NCBI RefSeq assembly: GCF_004010195.1
Contig: NC_057756.1
Coordinates: forward strand, 322,764-342,763
Length of the DNA stretch: 20,000 nucleotides
Reading direction: 5' to 3'
From: Chiloscyllium plagiosum
Lineage: Eukaryota
A model generated the notes under the pieces. It was not told the DNA's origin and searched no databases. It saw nothing but the letters and a program-made list of their open reading frames with translations. A program made the position numbers and the translations under genes. Shown in pieces: positions 1-20,000 of this stretch; position 1 is the first letter of the stretch; the number at the start of each line of letters is the position of its first letter.

Positions 1-350
1 TCTACCTGAAGGTGTTTCCAGGGTCCCCTTGGTCTGGGCTGGTGTCCCATCCTAACTTTTATGGGTCTCCCTGGGTTATGTTGTGCACAAACCATGCATC
101 TGTGGCAGTATTTGGCCACATCTCTTCCCATTCACTTCCACCACCACTCTCTCCCTAGGCTTGCTATCATGGCCTCTCTACTTGTATGGGAGAGCCTGTG
201 GTGTAGTTCAAGCAATATGTTCTGTATTCACATTGGCGCTACCACCGTGTCTGCTCACCTCCAGACACCATCCTCCCCTTTGAATGCCCCCTGCACTTCC
301 CATTTCTCTCTCTCTTCCTGTGGGGTGTCCTCCTGTAGATGCTGAATTTG
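1..350 (-). pseudogene. pol: Integrase N-terminal zinc-binding domain and start of catalytic core
   Basis: ELHHRLSHTSREAMIASLGREWWWK*MGRDVAKYCHRCMVCAQHNPGRPIKVRMGHQPRPRGPWKHLQV(D): HHCC motif followed by the PW..LQVD core start, with in-frame stops. Confidence 0.92.
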
Positions 351-419
351 GATCGTGTCTTTTGCTCATTCAATGGTGGCTATTGCAGCCTCGTCAATGG
401 CTTGTTGTTCTAGGGCATT

Positions 420-860
420 CTCAGCTGCTCAGTCTGCTGCCTGGTTTCCTTTGAATTTTAGCCAACCTGGACTCTCCTTTGCTGGCTCTTTTCAATGGGC
501 CATTATTTTAATTACTGCAGCCTGTTTTGGCTGTTCACTGGTATGCAATAGTGCCTGAATTCTTAATTGGTGTCTGATAGTGGTTCCTCCTGCAGTCATG
601 AACCCTCTTCCACCCCCATGCCACCACCTAGTCATGGACTACACTGAAGACATATTGACTGTCCGTATATATATATATTCACCATTTTTCCATTTGCTAG
701 TTTCAGTGCTTTGGTGAGTGCCACCAGATCTACTACCTGTGCAGACTGACTTCCGTCAATCCTCCCAAACATAACTGTTTCTAACTTATCATTTACCACA
801 GCCCATCCTGTTTGGGGAGACCCAGCTACGTATTTTTGTGACCGTCCATGAAGAGGGTTT
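420..860 (-). pseudogene. pol: Retroviral-type ribonuclease H domain
   Basis: LFMDG/(frameshift)SQKYVAGSPQTGWAVV...SQSAQVVDLVALTKALKLANGKMVNIYIYTDSQYVF...IKIMAH*...KGNQAAD. All four acidic catalytic positions are recognisable (E position reads D). Confidence 0.92.
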
Positions 861-899
861 CCTCAGCTGTGTCTAGGAGGGTATCTTTTACTCTCCCAC

Positions 900-1330
900 C
901 AATCATCATCCCCATCTATATCGCCACAGCTGTGCGGTTCCCCGTGTCTAGAATTCCCTCAGCTGGGTTTTCTCCCATATCCCTGACTATTACCACGGAC
1001 CAACTTGAAGGTAAAAGAACTGCTTCCCACTTTGCCCTTCTCATATTGGAAATGGCACTCAGTTTCCCTGTGTTTAGCATCTCTACTCGGATGTGTTTAG
1101 TGTGGAGGGTGACATTCTCTGTCATTAATATGGGCTTGCTAATCCTAACTGCCCAAGCAGCACAGTCTAAGGCTGCTTTGCACCTGCGCAACCCGGTCAC
1201 TACTGGCCCTCCTGTAGTTGAGTAGTACCCTATGGCCTTCCCCTGCTACCGTGGTTTTGGGTGACCACTGTGGAGTAAAATCTTCTCTCATTACTACAGT
1301 GGATGTGAAAATCCTTGCTGGGATCTGGCA
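900..1330 (-). pseudogene. pol: Tether/connection domain (degenerate RNase H)
   Basis: ORFs 1230-1547 and 916-1200 give LISAPGIGLPDPSKDFHIH...STVVTQ...PVVTGLRRCKAALDCAAWAV...ISNMRRAKWEAVLL, resembling the retroviral connection subdomain between RT and RNase H. Confidence 0.8.
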
Positions 1331-2035
1331 GCCCTATCCCAGGGGCCGATATGAGTCGAGACTTCAGCTGACTGTATGCCTCTTCCTGTTCCGGCCCCCA
1401 GGTCACAGGTTCCAAGGCGGGTTTGCCTCCTTTAATTAGTCTCTGGATCGGTTCAGCCAATTTTGCGAATTCTGGTATAATGCTCCTTCTGTAATTAAAT
1501 AGCCCCAAGACCGTTCTGACTCCACTGACTGTCGCAGGTCGTGGCATCTGCTGGAGTGCTTTCTAACAGTCATTGGGCATTTCTTTGGGTTCCTAGGATA
1601 TGAGGTGTCCCAGGTATAAGACTTTGTCTTCTGCCAATTTGTGCCCTTGTGGGGCCATCTTTTAACCCTGCAGTTGTCAATTCCTATAACACTAGACATA
1701 AAACTTCCTGCTGTCCTGACTTGGACTCTGAGGCAATTAGCATATCATCTACATATTGGAGGGCAGTGCTACCCTCTGGTAAATCTAGTCTGTTCAGAAT
1801 GTCACTCATCACCCTATGAAAAATAGTGGGGCTGTTGTGGAACCCTTGTGGCAGGCGAGTCCACATATACTGCCTGTCCCTTACTGTAAAGCAAATTTAT
1901 TCTGGGACTCTGGGTGTAAGGGGATAGACCAGAGCCAGTTGGCTATGTCTAAAACAGTAAAAATCTTGTGCTCGGCAGCCAAATCATTTAAAATGGTGGA
2001 GGGATCTGCTACAATGGGGTGCAATTTGGGGGTGA
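1331..2035 (-). pseudogene. pol: Reverse transcriptase, palm/thumb part
   Basis: TPKLHPIVADPSTILNDLAAEHKIFTVLDIANWLWSIPLHPESQNKFA/FTVRDRQYMWTRLPQGFHNSPTIFH...LQYVDDMLI (YVDD at 1744-1755), then VRTVLGLFNYRRSIIPEFAKLAEPI. Confidence 0.95.
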
Positions 2036-2038
2036 AAA

Positions 2039-2285
2039 TAGAACATAGAACATAGAACAATACAGCACAGAACAGGCCCTTCGGCCCACGATGTTGTGCC
2101 GAACATTTGTCCTAGCTTAAGCACCCATCCATGTACCTATCCAATTGCCGCTTAAAGGTCACCAAAGATTCTGACTTTACCACTCCCACAGGCAGCGCAT
2201 TCCATGCCCCCACCACTCGCTGAGTAAAGAACCTACCCCTAACATCTGTCCTATACCTACACAACCTTAATTTAAAGCTATTATC
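2039..2285 (-). mobile_element. CR1 LINE 3' end with (TTCTATG)n tail
   Basis: Minus strand encodes DVRGRFFTQRVVGAWNALP...TFKRQLDRYM, then the GGGCCGAAGGGCCTGTT 3' motif and a microsatellite tail (plus strand tagaacatagaacatagaac). Confidence 0.9.
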
Positions 2286-2429
2286 CTCTGTGAGAAGAAA
2301 TGCACCGTCACCTATTGATATGAACAAGAGTTGAACATAGGGGCTCAGGGAAGAGTGAATGGCCACGATATAAAGGCAATATTTGACTGAGGGTGTCATC
2401 GGGACAACCTATATATTTGAGCTGAATGG

Positions 2430-2755
2430 GAATTAGGTGTAACCTCCCGACTCGTTGGGGTCTTTCAGAGTACAAAGAAAGATGCTTGAGATCAATGGTC
2501 GACAGTCTTCTCAGTCCCCGGACATTTCTTCAGGAGATCCTTAGGTTAGTTCCTTAGCACAAACACCTTCAGCTGTTTCATCAATGTCTTTCGCCATCAC
2601 AAGATCAGAAGTTGGGAGGGTTACTGAAGATCACACAATGTTCAGAACAATGTGCCCCTCACCCCCTCAGCTCCTGAACCAATCTGTGTCCATGTGCAGC
2701 AAAACCTGGACAAAATTCAGTCATGTGCTGTTAAAGTGCCTGTGACATTCATACA
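2430..2755 (+). mobile_element. Old L2/CR1-group LINE RT fragment
   Basis: Degenerate remnants of the PQGS..FSCFIND..RSEVG..ADD region, followed by VHVQQNLDKIQSCAVK.PVTF (the QQDLDNIQAWADKWQVTF-type motif). Confidence 0.6.
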
Positions 2756-2997
2756 ACAGCACGGACAGATACTGTACATTTCCACAGTTAAAAGAGAAGC
2801 TCATTCAGCATCTCAAGCTTGTTACGCACTGATATTTGGAAGCTATTCAGCCCATCGAAATTACTGATCAAGAAGAGGGACAACACATTCAATTCTCCTG
2901 CCTGTTCCAAGGAAGAGGTTGGGTCTGGTCAGCACATCGAGCTGTTAAATAGGAGCAGGCAGAGCCCAATCAGGCGCTTGAACCTATTCCATGTAAC

Positions 2998-3350
2998 CAA
3001 GTGCTGGCTGTCCCTAATCAAGCAGTGTCTTTCCAGATACTCATAAATCCTATTCCTCAGTACCCTTTCCATTACTTTACCTACCACCGAAGTAAGACTT
3101 ACTGGCCTGTAATTCCCGGGGTTATCCCTATTCCCTTTTTTGAACAGGGGCACAACATTCGCCACTCTCCAGTCCCCTGGTACCACCCCCGTTGACAGTG
3201 AAGATGAAAAGATCATTGCCAACGGTACTGCAATTTCCTCTCTTGTTTCCCACATAATCCTAGGATATATCCCATCAGGCCCGGGGGACTTGTCTATCCT
3301 CAAGTTGTTCAAAATGTCCAACACATTTGGACCTACCCTCGTTCTCGTCA
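2998..3350 (-). mobile_element. CR1 ORF2 internal fragment
   Basis: IDKSPGPDGIYPRIMWETREEIAVPL...DWRVANVVPLFKKGNRDNPGNYRPVSLTSVVGKVME...IRDSQH within ORF 2929-3456. Confidence 0.92.
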
Positions 3351-3516
3351 TTAACATTTCGGGCATAAGCCCTTCTTCAGGAATGATTCCTGAAGAAGGG
3401 CTTATGCCCGAAACGTCAATTCTCCTGCTCCTTGGATGCTGCCTGACATGCTGCACTTTTCCAGCAACACATTTTCAGCTCTGATCTCCAGCATCTGCAG
3501 TCCTCACTTTCTCCTC
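3351..3516. mobile_element. Penelope-like terminal repeat, head-to-head inverted copy
   Basis: Perfect 28-bp inverted arms at 3357-3384 and 3386-3413. The forward unit 3385-3516 is homologous to 12089-12220, 14363-14485 and 16888-16947. Confidence 0.75.
3385..3424 (+). ncRNA. Minimal type I hammerhead ribozyme motif
   Basis: CTGAAGA (3390-3396), A, stem II GGGC-ttat-GCCC, GAAA (3410-3413), CGTC. Predicted cleavage is after C3417, and stem III is reduced to the ACGT palindrome. Confidence 0.72.
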
Positions 3517-3830
3517 TGCAATTTGGGTGTGACCTTATTTCGTCCTGTATAATCAATGGTGAGCTTGTAGCTCCCATCAGGCTTTAGTACTGGCCACATC
3601 GGGGAATTAATTGTACTTGTAGTTTCTTTCAGGTTTCCCGGTTTCATTAGTCCTTTCACTATCTCCACAACTGCGTGTTCTGCTTTGGGTTTTATTGAGT
3701 TTTGCCGGTGGGGCTTATGCTTCACTCCGGGAACCCTTATAGGGTCTATGTTAACTATACCTTTTAACATTTGGGGGTGAAAATGTGTTGCTGGAAAAGC
3801 GCAGCAGGTCAGAAACTTTGTTTCCATCCA
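3517..3830 (-). pseudogene. pol: Reverse transcriptase, N-terminal part
   Basis: WMETKF[15-aa insert]LKGIVNIDPIRVPGVKHKPHRQNSIKP...TINSPMWPVLKPDGSYKLTIDYTGRNKVTPKL. It joins the 1331-2035 segment at the duplicated TPKL codons. Confidence 0.92.
3769..3812 (-). repeat. Short insertion: 16-bp copy of the 2024-2039 junction overlapping a 35-bp Penelope-like piece
   Basis: atttgggggtgaaaat is identical at 2024-2039 and 3769-3784. Segment 3778-3812 is the near-exact reverse complement of ~3443-3477. Confidence 0.8.
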
Positions 3831-3984
3831 GGCTGCAGGGATTGAGGGGCAGATGAATCTGAATCCCCCCCTTTGAGGTTCCAGTCCCTACTGTAACCAC
3901 TTTAATACTTTCAAGGTGACTTGCAAGTTTCCCAATTTCGGTCTCTCGACCATCAATTTCCCTTTTGCACAAGTCATTAGAACA

Positions 3985-4250
3985 TTATATTCTTTCATGA
4001 GATCATTGCTCATTATGGTGCCCTCATTATTTTGGCATACATAGAATTTAATGGGGATATATATATATTGTTTATTTCTACGAGGGTAGTTTTGCTTAGG
4101 TAAGCTGGTGTTTTATCCCCTCCTACCTCCATTAAGTGAATCATTTCATTTGTGTGGGGTAAGGGTAAGTTTGTGATAGATATGGCCACTCCTGTGTCCA
4201 TTAGCATTTCACATTCCCTCCGTCCTATTATTGCAGGCGTGTAAATTCTC
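3985..4250 (-). pseudogene. pro: Retropepsin aspartic protease
   Basis: DGRIYTPAIIGRRECEMLMDTGVAISIT (DTG at 4190-4198)...VGG... After an (AT)n frameshift at ~4057-4068 it reads IPIKFYVCQNNEGTIMSNDLM, a degenerate ILGxD motif. Confidence 0.9.
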
Positions 4251-4329
4251 CCATCTCCCTTCCCCTCACGAATGGGAGGAGCCAGTTGACAGCTCTGCTG
4301 ACCTCTTAACTCCTGCAGTTCCACGGTCT

Positions 4330-4830
4330 TCCTGGTGGTATTTGGGGGTGCCCTATGCTTTTCCCAGCACACTGAATCTATGTGTCCTATTTTGTTGCAG
4401 TGGCTGCAGTATTTTACATTGTTCCCTGCTCTATTCCCCGCTCATGGAGCCCTACATTCTCTAGCAAAGTGTCCCTGTTGGCCACAGTTGCAGCAGGATA
4501 GTTTTATTCTGCTCTCTCCTCCATTCTGGTAGGCTGCTTTGTCAGGTCTTGCCCTTATCACAGGAGCTTCTGCCTCCTGCACCCTGCTAGCCCACTCAAC
4601 TAGATCATCGTAATCCGGGGACATTATTCCTCCCATTTTCAGGAGGGCTTGGTGTGCAGTAGAAAGCCCGTCTTTAAAAGCTTGGATGTTCCCCCGATCT
4701 AGATTCGCTTGCACTGAGCATTCCTGATAGATCCTAAATAATTGTTCTCCATACTCAGAGGCTCCTTCCTCTTTAAGTTGCCGAGTGGATGGGAACTTCT
4801 CTACCCCCTGACCAATAATACTGTCCCAGT
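4330..4830 (-). pseudogene. gag: Gag C-terminal half: MHR-like motif, capsid CTD and two CCHC zinc knuckles
   Basis: RQLKEEGASEYGEQL (QxxxExxxxYxx[R]L pattern, ~4739-4780), AFKDGL, CCNCGQQGHFAREC and CSHCNKIGHIDSVCW. A TGA at 4442-4444 lies between the knuckles. Confidence 0.88.
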
Positions 4831-5661
4831 ACCGTCTGTACGGCTGTAGCAGCCTCCAAGCATGTTGTACTCTCTACCGGTGGGACCTCTCTACCCACCT
4901 GGCCACCACTACCAGTTGGTACTTACCGGTCAGTTGGGAATGCTGGTTCAATAGGGTGTGCTCTCTACCGGGGCCTCCTCTGCCCTCCCAGCCACCTCTA
5001 CTGACCTGATGCCTCCCGATAGGCCCAGAAACCTACCTCTAGCCTGGTGTGTTCTCTACCGGTGGGACTCTTTACCCTTCCGGATGCCATTATTCTGTCT
5101 TTCTACTATGGACTGACAGAGTGTCACAGTTTCTCAGTGTCCATGCTCCCTGCTTTGGTAACGTGCGCCCCACTGAGGTTTCGCTCTTGGTCGGAATGAT
5201 CAGCTCCTCTTCCTCACCACATTGGAAATTATAAATACAATCAGCACCCAACTTTTAAATTAAACTCTAACTGGACTCTGCTTTGTTCGCCCCTACAGAG
5301 TCCAATTTTACTTGACTTTGCCACTTGTGCTTCACAGCCCTCGGTGCCTCAATTCCCACTTCAAATCCTGACCTTCGTGTGAGGGGGGCTACCCCTCTGA
5401 ACAACTGGTTTAGGGCAGGGTCTTTGAGACATGCACGTACTTGTCCATTGGTTGTTTCAGCACAAGCAGTAGGTTCTCACAGCAGTTAATACGGTTAACA
5501 CTTATTCTCCACAGACATGCACATATTTTGTTTTTTATCTCAGTACTGCAGCAAATTAGATATTACAATTGGTATACCTTTTAAACTGTGTCTTTGGCCT
5601 GGTCTGACTCTTCCCGTTTGCAGGTACAAATTGGTTCTTACACCGGCTCCCCAATCGTGGC

Positions 5662-5679
5662 CTAATAAGAACAGCACCA
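5662..5679 (-). promoter_or_regulatory. Putative primer-binding site (atypical)
   Basis: TGGTGCTGTTCTTATTAG begins 2 nt after the LTR-terminal CAACA. Only the first ~9 nt resemble a tRNA 3'-end complement. Confidence 0.6.
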
Positions 5680-5733
5680 ATTGTTGCAGGGAGAATCACC
5701 AGCCTCGGAGTCAGAGTCGGGGTTCAACAACAG

Positions 5734-5739
5734 TTTATT
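5734..5739 (-). terminator. LTR polyadenylation signal AATAAA
   Basis: About 50 nt before the LTR end and about 100 nt after the TATA box. Confidence 0.7.
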
Positions 5740-5835
5740 GTACAAGGAAATACCGGACTCTAGGGAGAGAAAGACACCAACAGCACAGGGGTCAACTGCG
5801 ATTCTTCTCTCGACCCAGAGCACATGTCAAGATAC

Positions 5836-5842
5836 TTTTATA
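5836..5842 (-). promoter_or_regulatory. LTR TATA box (TATAAAA)
   Basis: Position relative to the poly(A) signal and LTR end fits a U3/R/U5 layout. Confidence 0.65.
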
Positions 5843-5919
5843 CATTTTCTAATATAATAGCTCAGTGATGAGGTTATTCTGTCTGTAACATAGTTTGTTT
5901 ATTGTAAACATTGCAGAAT

Positions 5920-6024
5920 CGTTGATAGTTTCGGTGCAGTCATTGTCAGTTCTAGCACATACTTTGTTAATTTCCACATGGTCATTGTTAGTTTCAGTGT
6001 ACACATTGTCAGTTTCAATGCCTG
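5920..6024. repeat. Five degenerate 21-bp tandem repeats in U3
   Basis: cgttgatagtttcggtgcagt / cattgtcagttctagcacata / ctttgttaatttccacatggt / cattgttagtttcagtgtaca / cattgtcagtttcaatgcctg. Confidence 0.8.
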
Positions 6025-6409
6025 CATGGAAGTCCATTGCTGTAGTAATGGGCGCTAATTGCTCTTCCTGAGAAAGACGATTACTGCAGCCCTGGCTATT
6101 AGCACTTTCTATTGAGTCTATATCAAACTGTTAGCATTTCTATCAAAGGTGTTGGCTGGATCCACTTCGGCCGGCAGTGTACGTTACTCATGTGTATTCA
6201 CTCCCCCACCCACCTTAAACTTATCAACGGGGCTGTGGGTGCATTGTGTTGGCACTCTGGTGGCCCCAGGCAGTGCCTGTATTTGCTCTGCTGTTTCTCT
6301 CCATATTGTGGTCCGGCAGCCAACTTGTGTGCCAAGTGGCCAACTTTGGCCAAAAAAAATACATTCTAGATCACTAAAGTCCCTTAGGGTCTGGCTTAGA
6401 TGTGACAGT

Positions 6410-6717
6410 GGGTGGCATGGTGGCACAGTGGTTAGCACTGCTGCCTCACAGCGCCAGAGACCCTGGTTCAATTCCTGACTCAGGTGACTGACTATGTGGA
6501 GTTTGCACATTCTCCCCGTGTCTGCGTGGGTTTTCTCCGGGTGCTCTGGTTTCCTCCCATAATCCAAAGATGTGCAGGTCAGGTGAATTGGCCATGCTAA
6601 ATTGCCTGTAGTGTTAGGTAAAGGGGTAAATGTAGGGGAATGGGTGGGTGGTGGGTCGGTGTGGACTTGTTGGGCCGAAGGGCCTGTTTACACACTGTAA
6701 GTAATCTAATCTAATCT
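6410..6717 (+). mobile_element. tRNA-derived V-SINE (HE1-like shark SINE), full length
   Basis: A box TGGCACAGTGG (6421-6431), B box GGTTCAATTCC (6465-6475), V-domain gtggagtttgcacattctccccgtgtctgcgtgggt, CR1-like 3' motif gggccgaagggcctgtt and a (TAATC)3 tail. Confidence 0.9.
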
Positions 6718-6804
6718 TATGGCTCAGCAGCCATCTTGTGTGTCTGTGTGCCAAGAGTCACCCTGGCCCATGCCACCTCCCACTTCACTGGTTCCTTTTG
6801 ATTC

Positions 6805-9800
6805 ATGAATGTCTTGAGGGATAGTGTAGGAGGAAGGGGTTCAGATTTGTTGGACATTGGGACCGGTTCTGGGGAAGGTGGGTCTATTACAAACTGGACG
6901 GTCTACATCCAAACCAGACCGGAACCAATATCCTTGGGGAAGATTTTGCTACTGCTGCTGGGGAAATTTTAAACTAATATGGCAGGGGACTGGGAACCAG
7001 AAGAGAAAACAAATAGGCAGCAAGGTGGAGACTGGAGACTGTAAGAATTATGAAGATAGCATTAATAAAGGGAAGAGTAGGCAGATAGCAGATGAGTGCA
7101 AAACAACTGGTGGCCTGAAATGCATCTACTTTTAATGAAAGGAAGATAGTGTGTAAGGCAGATGAACTTAGTGCTTGGATTGGTGCCTGGGAGTATGACA
7201 ATGTTGCGATCACAGAGACTTGGTTGAAGGACGGGCATGATGATTGGCAACTAAATATTCCAAGATATTTACGCTTTAGGCAGGACAGGGAGGGAAGTAA
7301 AAGGGGGGGGTGGAGTTGCATTGCTAGTCAGGGATGATATCACGGCTGTGCTAAAGGGGGACACTATGGAGGTCTTGGGTAGTGAAGGCATTATGGGTGT
7401 AGCTGACAAATAAGAAGGGTGCAGTTACATTGTTGGGGCTGTATTACAGGCCTCCCAACAGTGAGTGTGAGGTAGAAGAACAAAAGGTAAACAGATTATG
7501 GAAAGATGTAGAGGCAATAGGGTAGTAGTGATAGGAGATTTTAATTTTCCCAACATTGACTGGGATACACTTCGCGTCAGAGGTCTGGGTGGGGTGGAAT
7601 TTGTAAGAAGCGTCCAGGAGAGTTTTCTCGAGCAATATGTCAATAGTCCGACGAGGGAAGGGGCCATATTGGAACTGGTACTGGGGAACGAGCCAGGACA
7701 GGTGGTAGAAGTTGTGGTAGGGGATTTCTTTGGGAACAGTGACCACAATTCTGTAAGTTTCAGAATATTTGTAGATAAAGATGACACTGGTCCGAAGGGA
7801 AGAGTTCTAAACTGGGCCAAGGCCAATTATATCAAAATTAGGCAGGAGCTCAGAAATGTGGATTGGTCACAACTATTTGAAGGAAAGTCCACATTTGGTA
7901 TTTGGGAGGCTTTCAAAGATAGTGCAGGATAGGCATGTCCCGTTGAAGGCAAAGGATAGGAAGGGCAAGATTTGTGAACCATGGATGACAGGAGAAATCG
8001 TAGGACTAGCCAAGGGGAAAAGGGAAGTGTACATAGGTCCAGGCAGCTAAGAACAGAATGGGCCCTGGAGGAATATCAGCAGAGAAGGACCAGTCTTAAG
8101 CGAGGAATCAAGCGGGCTAAAAGGGTTCATGAAATGGCTTTAGCGAGCAGAATTAAGGAGAATCCCAAAGCATTTTATTCTTATATAAGAAGCAAGCAGG
8201 TAACTAGAGAAAGGATTGGTTCACTAAAGAATAATGAACCTGAGAGAATGGGTGAGATTCTGAATGATTACTTTGCAGCAGTGTTCACTGAAGAGAAGAA
8301 CATGATGAATCTTGAGATTAGAGATAGAAGTTTGAAGTTGGATCACGTTGACATAAGTAGGGAAGATGTGTTGGGTAGGCTGGAGGTTATTAAGGTGAAC
8401 AAATCCCCAGGACCGGATGGGATCTATCCCAGGTTGCTGAGGGAGGCGAGAGAGGAAATAGCTGAGGCCTTGACAGATATCTTTGTGGCCTCCTTAAACA
8501 CAGGTGAGGTACCAGAGGACTGAAATCTTGCTCATGTTGTCCCCCTGCACAAGAAGGGTAGTAGGGATATTTTAGGTAACTACAGACCAGTGAACCTGAC
8601 GTCAGTGGTGAGGAAGTTGCTGGAGAGCGTACTGAGGGATAGGATCTATTTAAATTGAGAAAAGAATGGGTTTAGCAGTGATAGGCAACATGGTTTTGTG
8701 TGGGATAGATCGTGCCTTACCAACTTAATAAAGTTCTTCGAGGAAGTGACCAAGTTGATAGATGAAGGAAGGGCTGTTGATGTCATATACATGGACTTCA
8801 GTAAGGCGTTTGATAAGGTTCCCCATTGTAGACTAATGAAGAAAGTGAAATCACATGGTGTGCAGGGTGTTCTAGCTAGGTGGATAAAGAACTGGTTGAG
8901 CAACAGGAGACAAAGAGTAGTAGCTGAAGGGAGTTTCTCAAAATGGAGAAAGGTGACCAGTGGTGCTCCACAGGGATCAGTGCTGGGGCTGCTGTTGTTT
9001 GTGATATACATAAATGATCTGGAAGAGGGCACTATTGACATGATCAGCAAGTCTGCAGGTGACACGAAGATTTGTGGAGTAGCAGAAAGCAAAAGGGACT
9101 GTCAAAGAATACAGGAGGATATAGATAGATTGGAGAGTTGGACAGAAAAGTGGCAGATGGATTTTAATCCAGACAAATGTGAGGTGGTGCATTTAGGCAA
9201 GACTAATTCGAGAGCGAAACATTCAATGAACGGAAGAGCCTTGGGAAAAGATGATGGGCAGAGAGATCTGGGAGTGCAGGTCCATTGTACCCTGAAGGTT
9301 GCTGCACAGGTTGGTTGAGTTGTCAAGAAGGGATATAGTATGCTTGCCTTTATTGGCCGGTGTATTGAGTATAAGAGATGGCAAGTCATATTAAAATTGT
9401 ACAAGACATTGGTTCGGCTGCATTTAGAATACTGTGTACAACTCTGGTCACTACATTACCAAAAGGATGTGGACGCTTTGGAGAGTGTGCAGAGAAGATT
9501 TACGAGGATGTTGCCTGGTATGGAAGGTGCGAGCTATGAAGAGAGGTTGAGTAGGTTAGGTTTGTTTTCATTAGAAAAAAGGAGATTGACGGGGGACCTG
9601 ATTGAGGTTTACAAAATCATGAAGGATATAGACAGGATGGATAGAGACAAGCTTTTTCCCCAGGGTGAAGGGTTCAATAACAAGAGGTCACACTTTAAAC
9701 GCGAGTGGTGAAAAGTTTAAGGGGGATGCACAGAGGGTGGTAGGCGTCTGGAACCCGTTGCCAGCAGAGGTCGTAGAGGCAGGCACGGTAGATTCATTTA

Positions 9801-17040: not shown

Positions 17041-17321
17041 TGTTCTGAACTGTGCAAGGATGTAGTTGAATTTTGCTAGACATTGCCAGCAAGATGGCCT
17101 TTCACAGAAAGGTTCCAGAGAACTGGGTACAGGATTGGACAGTTCAGTTAAAGAAAAGCTGAAAATACATTGGAGGCAGTTCAAAGAAGGTTCACCAGAC
17201 TCATATCTGCAGTGAGCAGGGGAAAGAGTTGGGATAGCGAGAAATACTTTACATGGCATGTTGTACTGATCAGGAATGCACTGACTAAAAGAAAAAAAAA
17301 TCAGACTTCACTTTCAAAATA

Positions 17322-17858
17322 CCATGCAGTTTAGGTCACCACGCGATTGGGAGGATGTGATTGTACTGGAGAGGGTGTGGAAAAGGTTCACTAGGATGTT
17401 GCCTGGGGGTGAAAAGCCTCAGTTATGTGGAGAGACTTGACAGGGTGGGTTTGTTTTCTGTGGAGCACAGGAGAATGAAGGGGGATCTGATTGAAGTATA
17501 CAACATTATGAGAGGCAGAGACAGAGTAGATTGTGAGAATCTTTTCCCCATGGCAGACATGTCAGACACCAGAGGGCATAGGTATACAGTGATGAGTAAG
17601 TGTTCTAGAGGAGTTCTGAGACAAGATTGTTCGCCCAGAGGATGGTAGAAATATGGAACATGCTGCCTGAAAGAATGGTAGAGGCAGGTACTCTCACACC
17701 ATTTTGGAAGCATCTGGACAAGTACTAGCCAAGGCATTGTAGGTTATGGACCAAGCACAGGTAAATGGGAATTCTGTACTTTGGCGTTTGTTAGTTAGCA
17801 CAGACATGGTGGGCTGAGGGGCCTATTCCTATGCTGTAGGACTGTGTCATTCCATGAC
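17322..17858 (+). mobile_element. CR1 LINE 3' end
   Basis: LSYVERLDRVGLFSVEHRRMKGDLIEVYNIMRGRDRVD..LFP...TRGH, and 3' motif gggctgaggggcctattcctatgctgta. Confidence 0.88.
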
Positions 17859-17860
17859 AC

Positions 17861-18210
17861 TAACATCCTGTTGGTTACCAATCAGAACCTGAACAGGACT
17901 GGCCAAATAAATGCTGTGGCTACAAGAGCAGATCAGAGGCTGGGAATCACCGCCTGACTCCCCAGATGCTGTCCACCATCTGCAAGGCACACGTCAGGAT
18001 TTTAATGGAATACTCCCAACTTACCTGGATGGGTACAGCTCTAACAATGCTCAAGAGGCTTGACATCTTCTTGATTGGTATCACATCCACAAACATTCAC
18101 TCTCTCTAGCACCAATGCTCAGTTGCAGCACTGCAGTAACTCACCAAGGCTCGTCAGATAGCACCTTCCAAACCTATGACCACTACCATCTAAAAGGACC
18201 AGAGCAGTAT
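17861..18210 (+). mobile_element. L2/CR1-group LINE C-terminal fragment
   Basis: INAVATRADQRLGI...LTPQMLSTICKAHVRILMEYSQLTWMGTALTMLKRLDI. Confidence 0.7.
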
Positions 18211-18463
18211 GTTGGAAGGAATTAGATGAATCAGAGTGGAACATAACGAGGCAGCCTTTATTCAAACTTGTGGGAGAAGCCTCAGAGTCAAACTCCAAGA
18301 CACTCTGCCCTCACTTACAGGTCAAAACAAGGTACATGCACATATCTGCATCACAATGGTTACATGTAGCATTGGTATAAAATAAACTCCATGTCAGGTC
18401 TTTACTGGAGAAACAGAATACATCTTACTTACTTGCATGGTGCTGAGTCCTCTAATTCCAATG

Positions 18464-18922
18464 GGACTACTGTGTACAGTTCTGGTTGCCCTGCAGTAGG
18501 AAGGATATTATTAAATTGGAAAAGGGTGCAGAAAAGATTTGAAAGGATGTTACAAGGACTGGAGGGTTAGAGTGAAAAGGAGAGGCAAGAGGGACTCGCA
18601 CTTTTTTCCCCACTGGACAGATCTTTTCCGAAGAATTCAAAACTACAGGGCATATTTTTAAGGTGAGGGGGGAAAGATTTAAGAGGGGCCTGAGGGGCAA
18701 TTTTTTTTTAAACAAAGAAGATGGGTCATTTGTAGAATGAACTGCAAACGAAGTGATGGATGCAGTAGAGTTACATTTCAAACAAGTTTTGGTTCAGTAC
18801 ATGAATAGGAAAGGTTTCAAGGTATATGGGCCAAACATAGTCAAATTGGACTAGTTTAGTTTGGCAAACCGTTGGATTGAAGGGACTGTTTCCGTGCTGT
18901 ATGACTCTGACTTGATGACTCT
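18464..18922 (+). mobile_element. CR1 LINE 3' end
   Basis: DYCVQFWLPCSRKDIIKLE..VQKRF, 3' motif gaagggactgtttccgtgctgta and a tgactc-type tail. Confidence 0.85.
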
Positions 18923-19036
18923 GTCTTCAGAGCTTATCTGCCCCCATCATCTGCTCATAACACCCAAGCCTTTCCTTATGATCAATACTTGTACGACCAC
19001 AAATATAAAGTATCTAAATTATTTCAATGAGAAGAC

Positions 19037-19095
19037 ATGGACAGTAAGTTTGCAGACCACACCAAATTTGGTGGTTTCGTGGACAGTGAAAAAGA
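19037..19095 (+). mobile_element. Short CR1 RT fragment
   Basis: SKFADHTKFGGFVDSE (FADD region). Confidence 0.7.
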
Positions 19096-20000
19096 CAATT
19101 TTCTGATTCAGTATGTGGATGTACCTACTAGAGAAGGTGCAAAACTTGACCTACTCTTGGGAAATAAGGCAGGGCAGGTGACTGAGGTGTCAGTGGGGGA
19201 GCACTTTGGGGCCAGCGACCATAATTCTATTCGTTTTAAATTCGTGTTGGAAAAGGATAGACCAGATCTAAAAGTTGAAGTTCTAAATTAGAGAAAGGCC
19301 AATTTTGACGGTATTAGGCAAGAACATTTGAAAGCTGATTGGAGTCAGACGTTCACGAGTAAAGCGACGGCTGGAAAATGGGAAGCTTTCAGAAATGAGA
19401 AATCAAGAATCCAGAGAAAGTATATTCCTGTCAGGGTGAAAAGGAAGGTTGGTAGGTATCAGGAATACTGGATGACTAAAGAAATTGAGGGTTTGGTTAG
19501 GAAAAGAAGGAAGCATGTGTCAGGTATAGACAAGATAAATCGAGTGAATCCTTAGAAGAGTATAAAGGAAGTAGGAGTATACTTAAGAGGGAAATCAGGA
19601 GGGCAAAAAGGGGATATGAGATAGCGTTGGCAAATAGAATTAAGGAGAATCCAAAGGGACTTTACAAATATATTAAGGACAAAAGGGTAACGGAGGAGAG
19701 AATAGGGCCCCTCAAAGATCAGCAAGGCGGCCTTTCTGTGGAGCCACATAAAATGGGGGAGATACTAAATGAATATTTTGCATCAGTATTTACTGTGAAA
19801 AAGGCTATGGAAGATATAGACTGTCGGGAAATAGATGGTGACATCTTGCAAAATGTCCAGATTACAAAGGAGGAAGTGCTGGATGTCTTGAAACGGTTAA
19901 AGTTGGATAAATCCCCAGGACCTGATCAGGTATACCCGAGAACTCTGTGGGAAGCTAGAGAAGTGATTGCTGGGCCTCTTGCTGAGATATTTGTATCATC
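19096..20000 (+). mobile_element. 5'-truncated CR1 ORF2 (endonuclease C-terminus onward), continuing past the window end
   Basis: FLIQYVDVPTREGAKLDLLLGN...GASDHNSIRF...IKENPKGLYKYIKDK...DKSPGPDQVYPR, with stops and frameshifts. Confidence 0.92.

Follow-up and report, generated by a model that had tools for sequence, protein, structure and literature searches.

What kind of retrovirus left the decayed element found at one end of this shark DNA, and how is it related to the retroviruses of other fish? The window analysed here, a whole stretch of 20,000 nucleotides from Chiloscyllium plagiosum (contig NC_057756.1, positions 322,764 to 342,763), carries on its minus strand a decayed provirus whose parts follow in the order CCHC knuckles, protease, reverse transcriptase (RT), tether, RNase H and HHCC integrase, as identified by motifs and Pfam. 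We consider it probable that a simple retrovirus, built as long terminal repeat (LTR)-gag-pro-pol-env, left this dead copy together with at least 40 decayed siblings in the host genome, and that the family is likely part of a snakehead-related grade within the fish retroviruses. The family lies inside the retroviruses, outside class I, and is not a lokiretrovirus.

Architecture of the provirus and its siblings

The original prediction, made from the letters of the window, had read positions 1..6200 as a retrovirus-like provirus. The RT motifs, the tether with a second RNase H, the HHCC integrase and the two-knuckle Gag that it named were all located on the minus strand. The RT motifs are PVLKPDGSYKLTIDY (3549-3593), LDIANWLW (1929-1952), which reads LDIANGFW or close variants in siblings, WTRLPQGFHNSP (1828-1863) and YVDD (1744-1755). 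The tether matched Pfam RT_RNaseH_2 (E=1e-7) and RT_RNaseH (E=0.0067), while the second RNase H carries FMDG (841-852), SAQV (734-745), YTDSQY (652-669) and GNQAAD (432-449), and PF00075 matched the same domain in an open reading frame (ORF) of a sibling (E=1.7e-10). Both knuckles have the form CX2CX4HX4C, the first with a Pfam match at E=9e-4, and a nucleocapsid of this kind would have packaged the viral RNA. The predicted limits proved too narrow, as the 5' LTR reaches 6787 and the element extends ~3.0 kb left of window base 1, where the integrase core and env lie. The first part of the LTR is hidden by an insertion that resembles a short interspersed element (SINE). The features, with RT split by fragments of long interspersed elements (LINE) and SINEs, are as follows.

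5683..6787, minus strand: 5' LTR (TG...CA), ~740 bp without its insertion, matching sibling 3' LTRs; the start TGAAG and the end CAACA are common to sibling copies
~6351..6715 (approximate), unstranded: SINE-like secondary insertion inside the LTR, not in sibling LTRs and repeated elsewhere
5663..5680, minus strand: primer binding site of tRNA-Ser type, partly deleted in the window copy, 10/18 bases matching host tRNA-Ser genes
4790..5662, minus strand: leader with three 91-bp-spaced repeats at 4859-5068, from alignment to siblings
4289..4788, minus strand: gag 3' remnant, likely the C-terminal part of capsid, and two CCHC knuckles (4454-4495, 4367-4408)
4058..4288, minus strand: protease, DTG at 4184-4201, in the same frame as the gag end, 72% to shark relative P0015
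3533..4057, minus strand: pol linker and N-terminal part of RT, 68% to P0015, with a short foreign piece at ~3768-3812 and an inverted repeat
2036..3532, unstranded: LINE/SINE-fragment secondary insertion that splits RT, absent from siblings, with a LINE-type RT fragment (Pfam RVT_1, E=0.003) and a flanking direct repeat
1400..2035, minus strand: RT core and thumb, with stops and frame changes inside, unbroken pieces 72-79% to P0015
900..1399, minus strand: tether, a degenerate first RNase H (Pfam PF17919/PF17917), 72-73% to P0015
415..860, minus strand: second RNase H, assigned by motifs; the family's RNase H groups with snakehead, gamma and epsilon rows
1..300, minus strand: integrase N-terminus, HHCC at 87-203; core and C-terminus lie in the left neighbour L013
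~L013:9050-6990, left of the window, after the integrase C-terminus: env, broken, split by a ~750-bp insertion

The window copy has thus taken up four insertions, in the LTR, twice in RT and in env. Removing 2036-3532 as foreign, as had been proposed, is right, since siblings align from ~3517 directly to 2035 and a ~17-bp direct repeat flanks the segment. In addition, ~0.85 kb of 5' gag present in siblings is deleted between 4790 and 4788. The gag remnant was most similar to horn-shark P0132 (E=1e-12), followed by snakehead retrovirus (E=3e-6). Of the env and 3' LTR that were to be looked for to the left, a gamma-type rather than F-like env was present, and the 3' LTR of the window copy was not found in L013. 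Just past the element end, at L013:6322-6847 where the 3' LTR would be expected, a distant integrase fragment lies on the opposite strand (23-32% to P0015/P0018). The 3' end may have been removed by another LTR element or by a deletion.

To place this copy among its relatives, the C. plagiosum genome (3.56 Gb) was searched and the nine best siblings were compared over their full length. An RT query of 806 bases gave 305 first-look candidates, and all 40 that were scored matched (83-87%, leaving aside the hit on the window itself); leader, LTR and env queries gave rough counts of 1008, 1222 and 259 candidates, 40 being scored each time. Env is retained in seven of the nine full-length siblings, with one lacking it and one truncated.

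Host tRNA-Ser genes were found and confirmed, and in 26 of 30 copies at least 15 of the 18 primer-site bases match the end of the tRNA (3'), with three copies matching at all 18; the low value of the window copy is due to its deletion. Reverse transcription would have been primed on this host tRNA. One copy, L116 (G000:C2:77716178-77716600), has a different primer site near that of CmiERV lineage I of the elephant shark, presumably of another tRNA-Ser isoacceptor, in which case it would be the trace of priming that truly took place. Upstream of the 3' LTR a purine tract is present in all five siblings where that start was read, and the 4-bp target duplication is exact in one and holds at three of four bases in three of the four copies with both ends readable. 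The gag-pol junction, which falls after the second knuckle and before the protease, carries an in-frame stop in four siblings and a Cys in the window and in one sibling; in two more siblings it is frameshifted, and in another two it could not be read. Gag-Pol may have been made by read-through of a stop. This one-frame arrangement is not diagnostic, because snakehead retrovirus and a lokiretrovirus also have it. Taken together, the hallmarks of Retroviridae are present, namely LTR, primer site, polypurine tract, gag-pro-pol-env order and tether with RNase H, the evidence for the polypurine tract and the 3' LTR coming from siblings only. A search of Rfam gave nothing credible.

Elsewhere in the window, a 35-bp perfect-style hairpin lies at 3350-3420, and at 3443-3812 a 35-bp inverted copy of a SINE piece adjoins sequence resembling the target repeat of the insertion, which suggests a complex insertion event. 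Decayed LINE retrotransposons, presumably of CR1/L2 type, with endonuclease and RT fragments occupy 7000-9800 and 17300-20000 on the plus strand.

Placement, spread and rival readings

The closest Pol proteins form a cluster with a Mustelus asterias member, followed by sawshark and horn-shark proteins. Compared column by column over pol, the family's commonest residue agrees with that of Mustelus at 398 of 518 columns, with the sawshark protein at 165 of 242 and with P0018 at 333 of 551, and each of six window pieces scored separately was best on P0015 (68-79%). Scans of viral contigs with the family's own Pol gave no match, and a search for longer Pol relatives returned Gypsy-type proteins only.

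Reference viruses were drawn from motif scans, with L058 recognised as snakehead retrovirus and L045 and L046 as lokiretroviruses by an RT text match to the supplement of PMC7947760. P0152 (Xenopus) grouped with L045 and L046, which makes three Loki rows in the trees. The remaining reference labels are presumptive, from motifs and genome lengths. In both L045 and L046, lokiretrovirus copies from two assembly contigs, pol and env are long open frames. A further cluster, P0057, consists of avian-type retroviral Pol pieces deposited as Klebsiella pneumoniae, likely contamination.

For the RT tree 56 of 68 rows were cut, with 12 near-duplicates dropped, and the mixture-model repeat used 40 rows. 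Three unbroken sibling ORFs joined P0001 of the Mustelus cluster (100/99), and then P0018 and horn-shark P0132 (99/93). The family falls inside the retrovirus clade (100/99; 98/95 on RT plus tether), with the three Loki rows and Gypsy outside, and the mixture model agrees; the element is a true retrovirus and no Gypsy relative, as had been proposed. It never nests among gamma and epsilon sequences and stays outside the class I clade in the RT tree, its mixture-model repeat and the RT-plus-tether tree. In the RNase H tree the family groups with snakehead, gamma and epsilon rows (93/94), with Loki and foamy rows separate (93/84), in line with the groups defined in PMC7947760. The view that the element is neither a foamy virus nor gamma-type in its pol is supported. 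The integrase tree, from which CGIN1 is absent, does not group the family with Loki rows and is weak at its deep nodes.

Several results weigh against a snakehead-related retrovirus that spread with an env in use. RT alone leaves the family unjoined to snakehead retrovirus, in a basal polytomy with it and foamy rows, and the mixture model does likewise. The RT-plus-tether tree (38 rows, with class II and endogenous retrovirus L (ERV-L) left out and three rows of odd residue make-up) puts the family and a minnow (Pimephales) protein sister to eel, the Astyanax group and class I (96/99). It also rejects a broad clade Huo, the snakehead-related class III endogenous retroviruses (ERVs) of fish and turtles in PMC6001957 (p=0.0008), as well as narrower versions (p=0.003-0.005). 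A grouping of family and foamy rows is not rejected by the approximately unbiased (AU) test (p=0.052 and 0.078), though the family never grouped with foamy rows in the trees, where fish foamy-like ERVs are unsampled. The trees cover no ERV-L, Odin or published shark ERVs, and the selection test gave no demonstration of env selection during spread.

Given these results, the family may instead sit on the class I (gamma/epsilon) stem and not in clade Huo, with "snakehead-like" describing a grade, and we regard this as a tentative but real possibility. The sister position in the RT-plus-tether tree and the rejection of a snakehead-cluster grouping (p=0.005) argue for it, and the 4-bp target duplication and gamma-type env fit class I as well; the virus would have worked in the way already described. 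The node is open on RT alone, however, the RT-plus-tether tree has the gaps and odd-composition rows described above, a grouping of the family with snakehead retrovirus alone is not rejected (p=0.25), and PMC6001957 gives Huo strong support. The family bears on the question of whether snakehead-like retroviruses form one clade or make up a grade towards the gamma and epsilon viruses.

How the copies spread is a separate matter. Private variants are flat over codon positions (pol 350/342/324, env 113/109/91), the pattern that post-insertion decay should leave, and copies differ from the column majority by a median of 7.6-7.9%. LTR pairs have Kimura two-parameter (K2P) distances of 0.129-0.200 in four copies, and 0.077 and 0.25 on two short pieces of a fifth. 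The age implied by 0.13-0.20 depends on the rate, being 29-45 million years at 2.2e-9 and ten times older at 2.2e-10, the rate assumed in PMC4422223. Germ-line entry was likely a single burst that started from few source genomes at least tens of millions of years ago, and each copy examined has decayed since then, the window copy having lost its 3' LTR, the 5' part of gag and some of the primer site. It is possible, if rather doubtful, that the burst was driven by retrotransposition within the germ line, with env merely a passenger. Consistent with this, the variation is star-like, and variants shared between copies show a weak bias towards third positions (pol p=0.04-0.07; env p=0.07-0.21, not significant), with an omega of 0.37-0.57 that recurrent transitions can also yield; the LTR control (p=0.19-0.47) has a similar third-position excess and odds ratio. 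Against it stand the env sequence kept in most full-length siblings and the long open env frames in other sharks, P0187 of 433 aa (sawshark) and P0190 of 468 aa.

A foamy-like ERV of clade Tu is very improbable. The top solved-structure match is a foamy RT at 106.9 bits, but murine leukaemia virus (MLV) RT reaches 106.8, and the AU test does not reject the grouping; against this, the two CCHC knuckles differ from the Gag of foamy viruses and clade Tu, which lacks them (PMC8278194), the env is gamma-type and the RNase H lies outside the Loki and foamy group. The LDLANGFW/YVDD-type motifs once read as a mark of foamy viruses are found in snakehead retrovirus and in many fish ERVs as well.

A lokiretrovirus or Odin-adjacent element extending that group to sharks is hardly credible, and its Loki form is refuted by the RT and env tests: the dual RNase H and slightly higher scores on Loki than on snakehead retrovirus for two window pieces (3537-3773, 60 vs 56 bits; thumb/tether, 73 vs 61) speak for it, and a shark case would have been new given that PMC7947760 reports 0 hits in three orectolobiform genomes, but the grouping with the three Loki rows fails the AU test (p=0.0065 on RT, p=2e-5 on RT plus tether), RNase H and, with weak support, integrase do not join Loki, the env is not F-like, and Loki RT reads WNRCPFGYSNSP, unlike the family. 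Of the suggested lokiretrovirus/snakehead-like placement, the snakehead-like neighbourhood is the part that is supported.

The envelope and filovirus GP2

Sibling env ORFs matched the Pfam Ebola-like HR1-HR2 domain (E=1.8e-4) and TLV_coat (E=9e-4), and gave no match to PF00523 (paramyxo/pneumovirus F), to which the env of a Loki control matched weakly (E=0.079). By eye, the transmembrane subunit (TM) has a basic cleavage-like site, a Cys-bounded stretch of ~39 residues, a glycan motif in heptad repeat 1 (HR1), CX6C and a membrane anchor. Heptad repeats, an immunosuppressive-like domain, CX6C without a third Cys and a transmembrane anchor are all features of gamma-type Env, the CX6C form corresponding to the CXnC variant of bioRxiv 2021.11.23.469661. 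Cell entry would have used a class I fusogen with an internal fusion loop, as in avian leukosis virus Env and filovirus GP2.

The best solved-structure matches of env were filovirus GP2 (E=5e-5), then snake arenavirus GP2 and syncytin-1. Two glycan sites, which have roles in filoviruses, match GP2 by eye, and the loop cysteine is common to both. A profile search with env collected 30 proteins, the named ones from sawshark, whale shark, horn shark, manta and epaulette shark. In a TM tree of ~100 columns the family falls in an elasmobranch loop clade (98/92 and 98/95). Filovirus GP2 is sister to this clade at 81/68 with a long-branch warning, a node that collapses to open under the mixture model, and a grouping of filoviruses with another shark env group is not rejected (p=0.44), that with alpha having p=0.07.

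We also considered whether the family is uniquely close to filovirus GP2, which was rejected: the filovirus profile gave two other shark env groups 63-67 bits and the family 36-61, a comparison that is biased because 12 of the shark loci had been chosen by means of a filovirus query. On the same profile avian leukosis rows scored 38-42 bits and MLV-type rows ~21-24. At least eight groups of gamma-type env (L138-L174) occur in the genome; most of them, at 42-67 bits, beat the avian leukosis virus TM, with one at 22-24.

A sister position of cartilaginous-fish ERV ectodomains to filovirus GP2 is already in print (PMC11521997, Fig 6, posterior 0.83). The TM of its Chiloscyllium locus L176 falls in the same clade as that of the family (98/92 and 98/95), while both of its Chiloscyllium loci have a class I-like pol (best match P0136) with no nucleotide match to the family's genes; its section on these ectodomains leaves pol unclassified and the fusion loop unmentioned. 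Because L176 shares the env clade and carries a class I pol, exchange of env between backbones is suggested, as described for anamniotes in bioRxiv 2021.11.23.469661.

Among retroviruses, the closest kin of the Ebola and Marburg fusion protein are likely to be found in the elasmobranch env group, which bears on the question of the retroviral source of the filovirus fusion subunit. What the family contributes is hundreds of candidate loci, relatives whose open frames are long, and a sign of env moving between backbones. A bolder reading, which we think unlikely, is a shark-wide lineage (this genome, smooth-hound, sawshark, horn shark and whale shark) on the class I stem and not in clade Huo, whose compact env, with a Cys-bounded internal fusion loop, is part of the elasmobranch clade that gave filoviruses GP2 and that moved between class I and snakehead-like backbones in sharks. 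If this were true, the long open frames in living sharks would be a model for the pre-filovirus fusogen. The predicted structure of the sawshark env P0187 had low confidence (predicted local distance difference test score 37.6).

Among the env relatives, the P0191 cluster contains several annotated 286-307 aa env-derived genes of the family's env group in Heterodontus francisci, three on a contig of one length, which are candidates for host co-option. TLV_coat matches also lie in open frames of 1782 and 1110 codons at G000:C10:21427438 and C15:26593384, which may be elements that are young or have been preserved, or else a different gene.

Comparison with known systems

Class III RTs are the commonest ERV RTs of cartilaginous fish according to PMC11089739, and the family is one more old shark ERV of an already reported kind, perhaps unnamed. 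A literature search, which did not extend to Repbase and Dfam, found no description of it. The proposed host extension to cartilaginous fish did not survive, since snakehead-like ERVs of these hosts are already in print (PMC4422223, PMC6001957).

The more distant comparisons are quickly made. Lokiretroviruses (PMC7947760; L045, L046) have a tether with RNase H and one-frame gag-pol as in the family, and differ in RT clade, RNase H group and env type. Odin retrotransposons, sister to Loki in PMC12440569, lack env as defined, whereas the family has one. XtERV-S (PMC8278194) has a class III-type backbone, gamma-type env and tRNA-Ser priming as in the family, but is ERV-L-like, without knuckles and with a 5-bp target duplication. 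ERV-SA.a-Ppe (bioRxiv 2021.11.23.469661), compared by its description only, likewise joins a class III-type backbone to a gamma-type env.

Rh_ty_ERV4 (whale shark) and Ch_my_ERV12 (green turtle) stand in the Huo stretch of the S2 Fig text of PMC6001957, their clade being read from text order. By eye they share with the family the RT motifs YPI[KR]PEA, NSP.WPV.KPDG..RLTIDYT.LN and PIVA.P.TILN, as well as LDIANGFWSIP, YTWTR.PQGFHNSP.IFH and LQYVDD. Both are clearly different sequence families by eye, in a comparison of partial motifs that does not cover env. CmiERV lineage I of the elephant shark (PMC4422223), with a snakehead-related pol that clusters with snakehead retrovirus, has by eye the same RT motifs, a similar tRNA-Ser-type primer site and a gamma-type env; its TM carries CX6CC and an LQNR-type immunosuppressive domain, whereas that of the family has CX6C without a third Cys and a loop cysteine. 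Snakehead retrovirus itself (L058) resembles the family in its one-frame gag-pol with a stop between, similar RT motifs, RNase H group and coiled-coil Gag, and differs in having one knuckle instead of two, a long env without a Pfam match and an RT identity of 44%.

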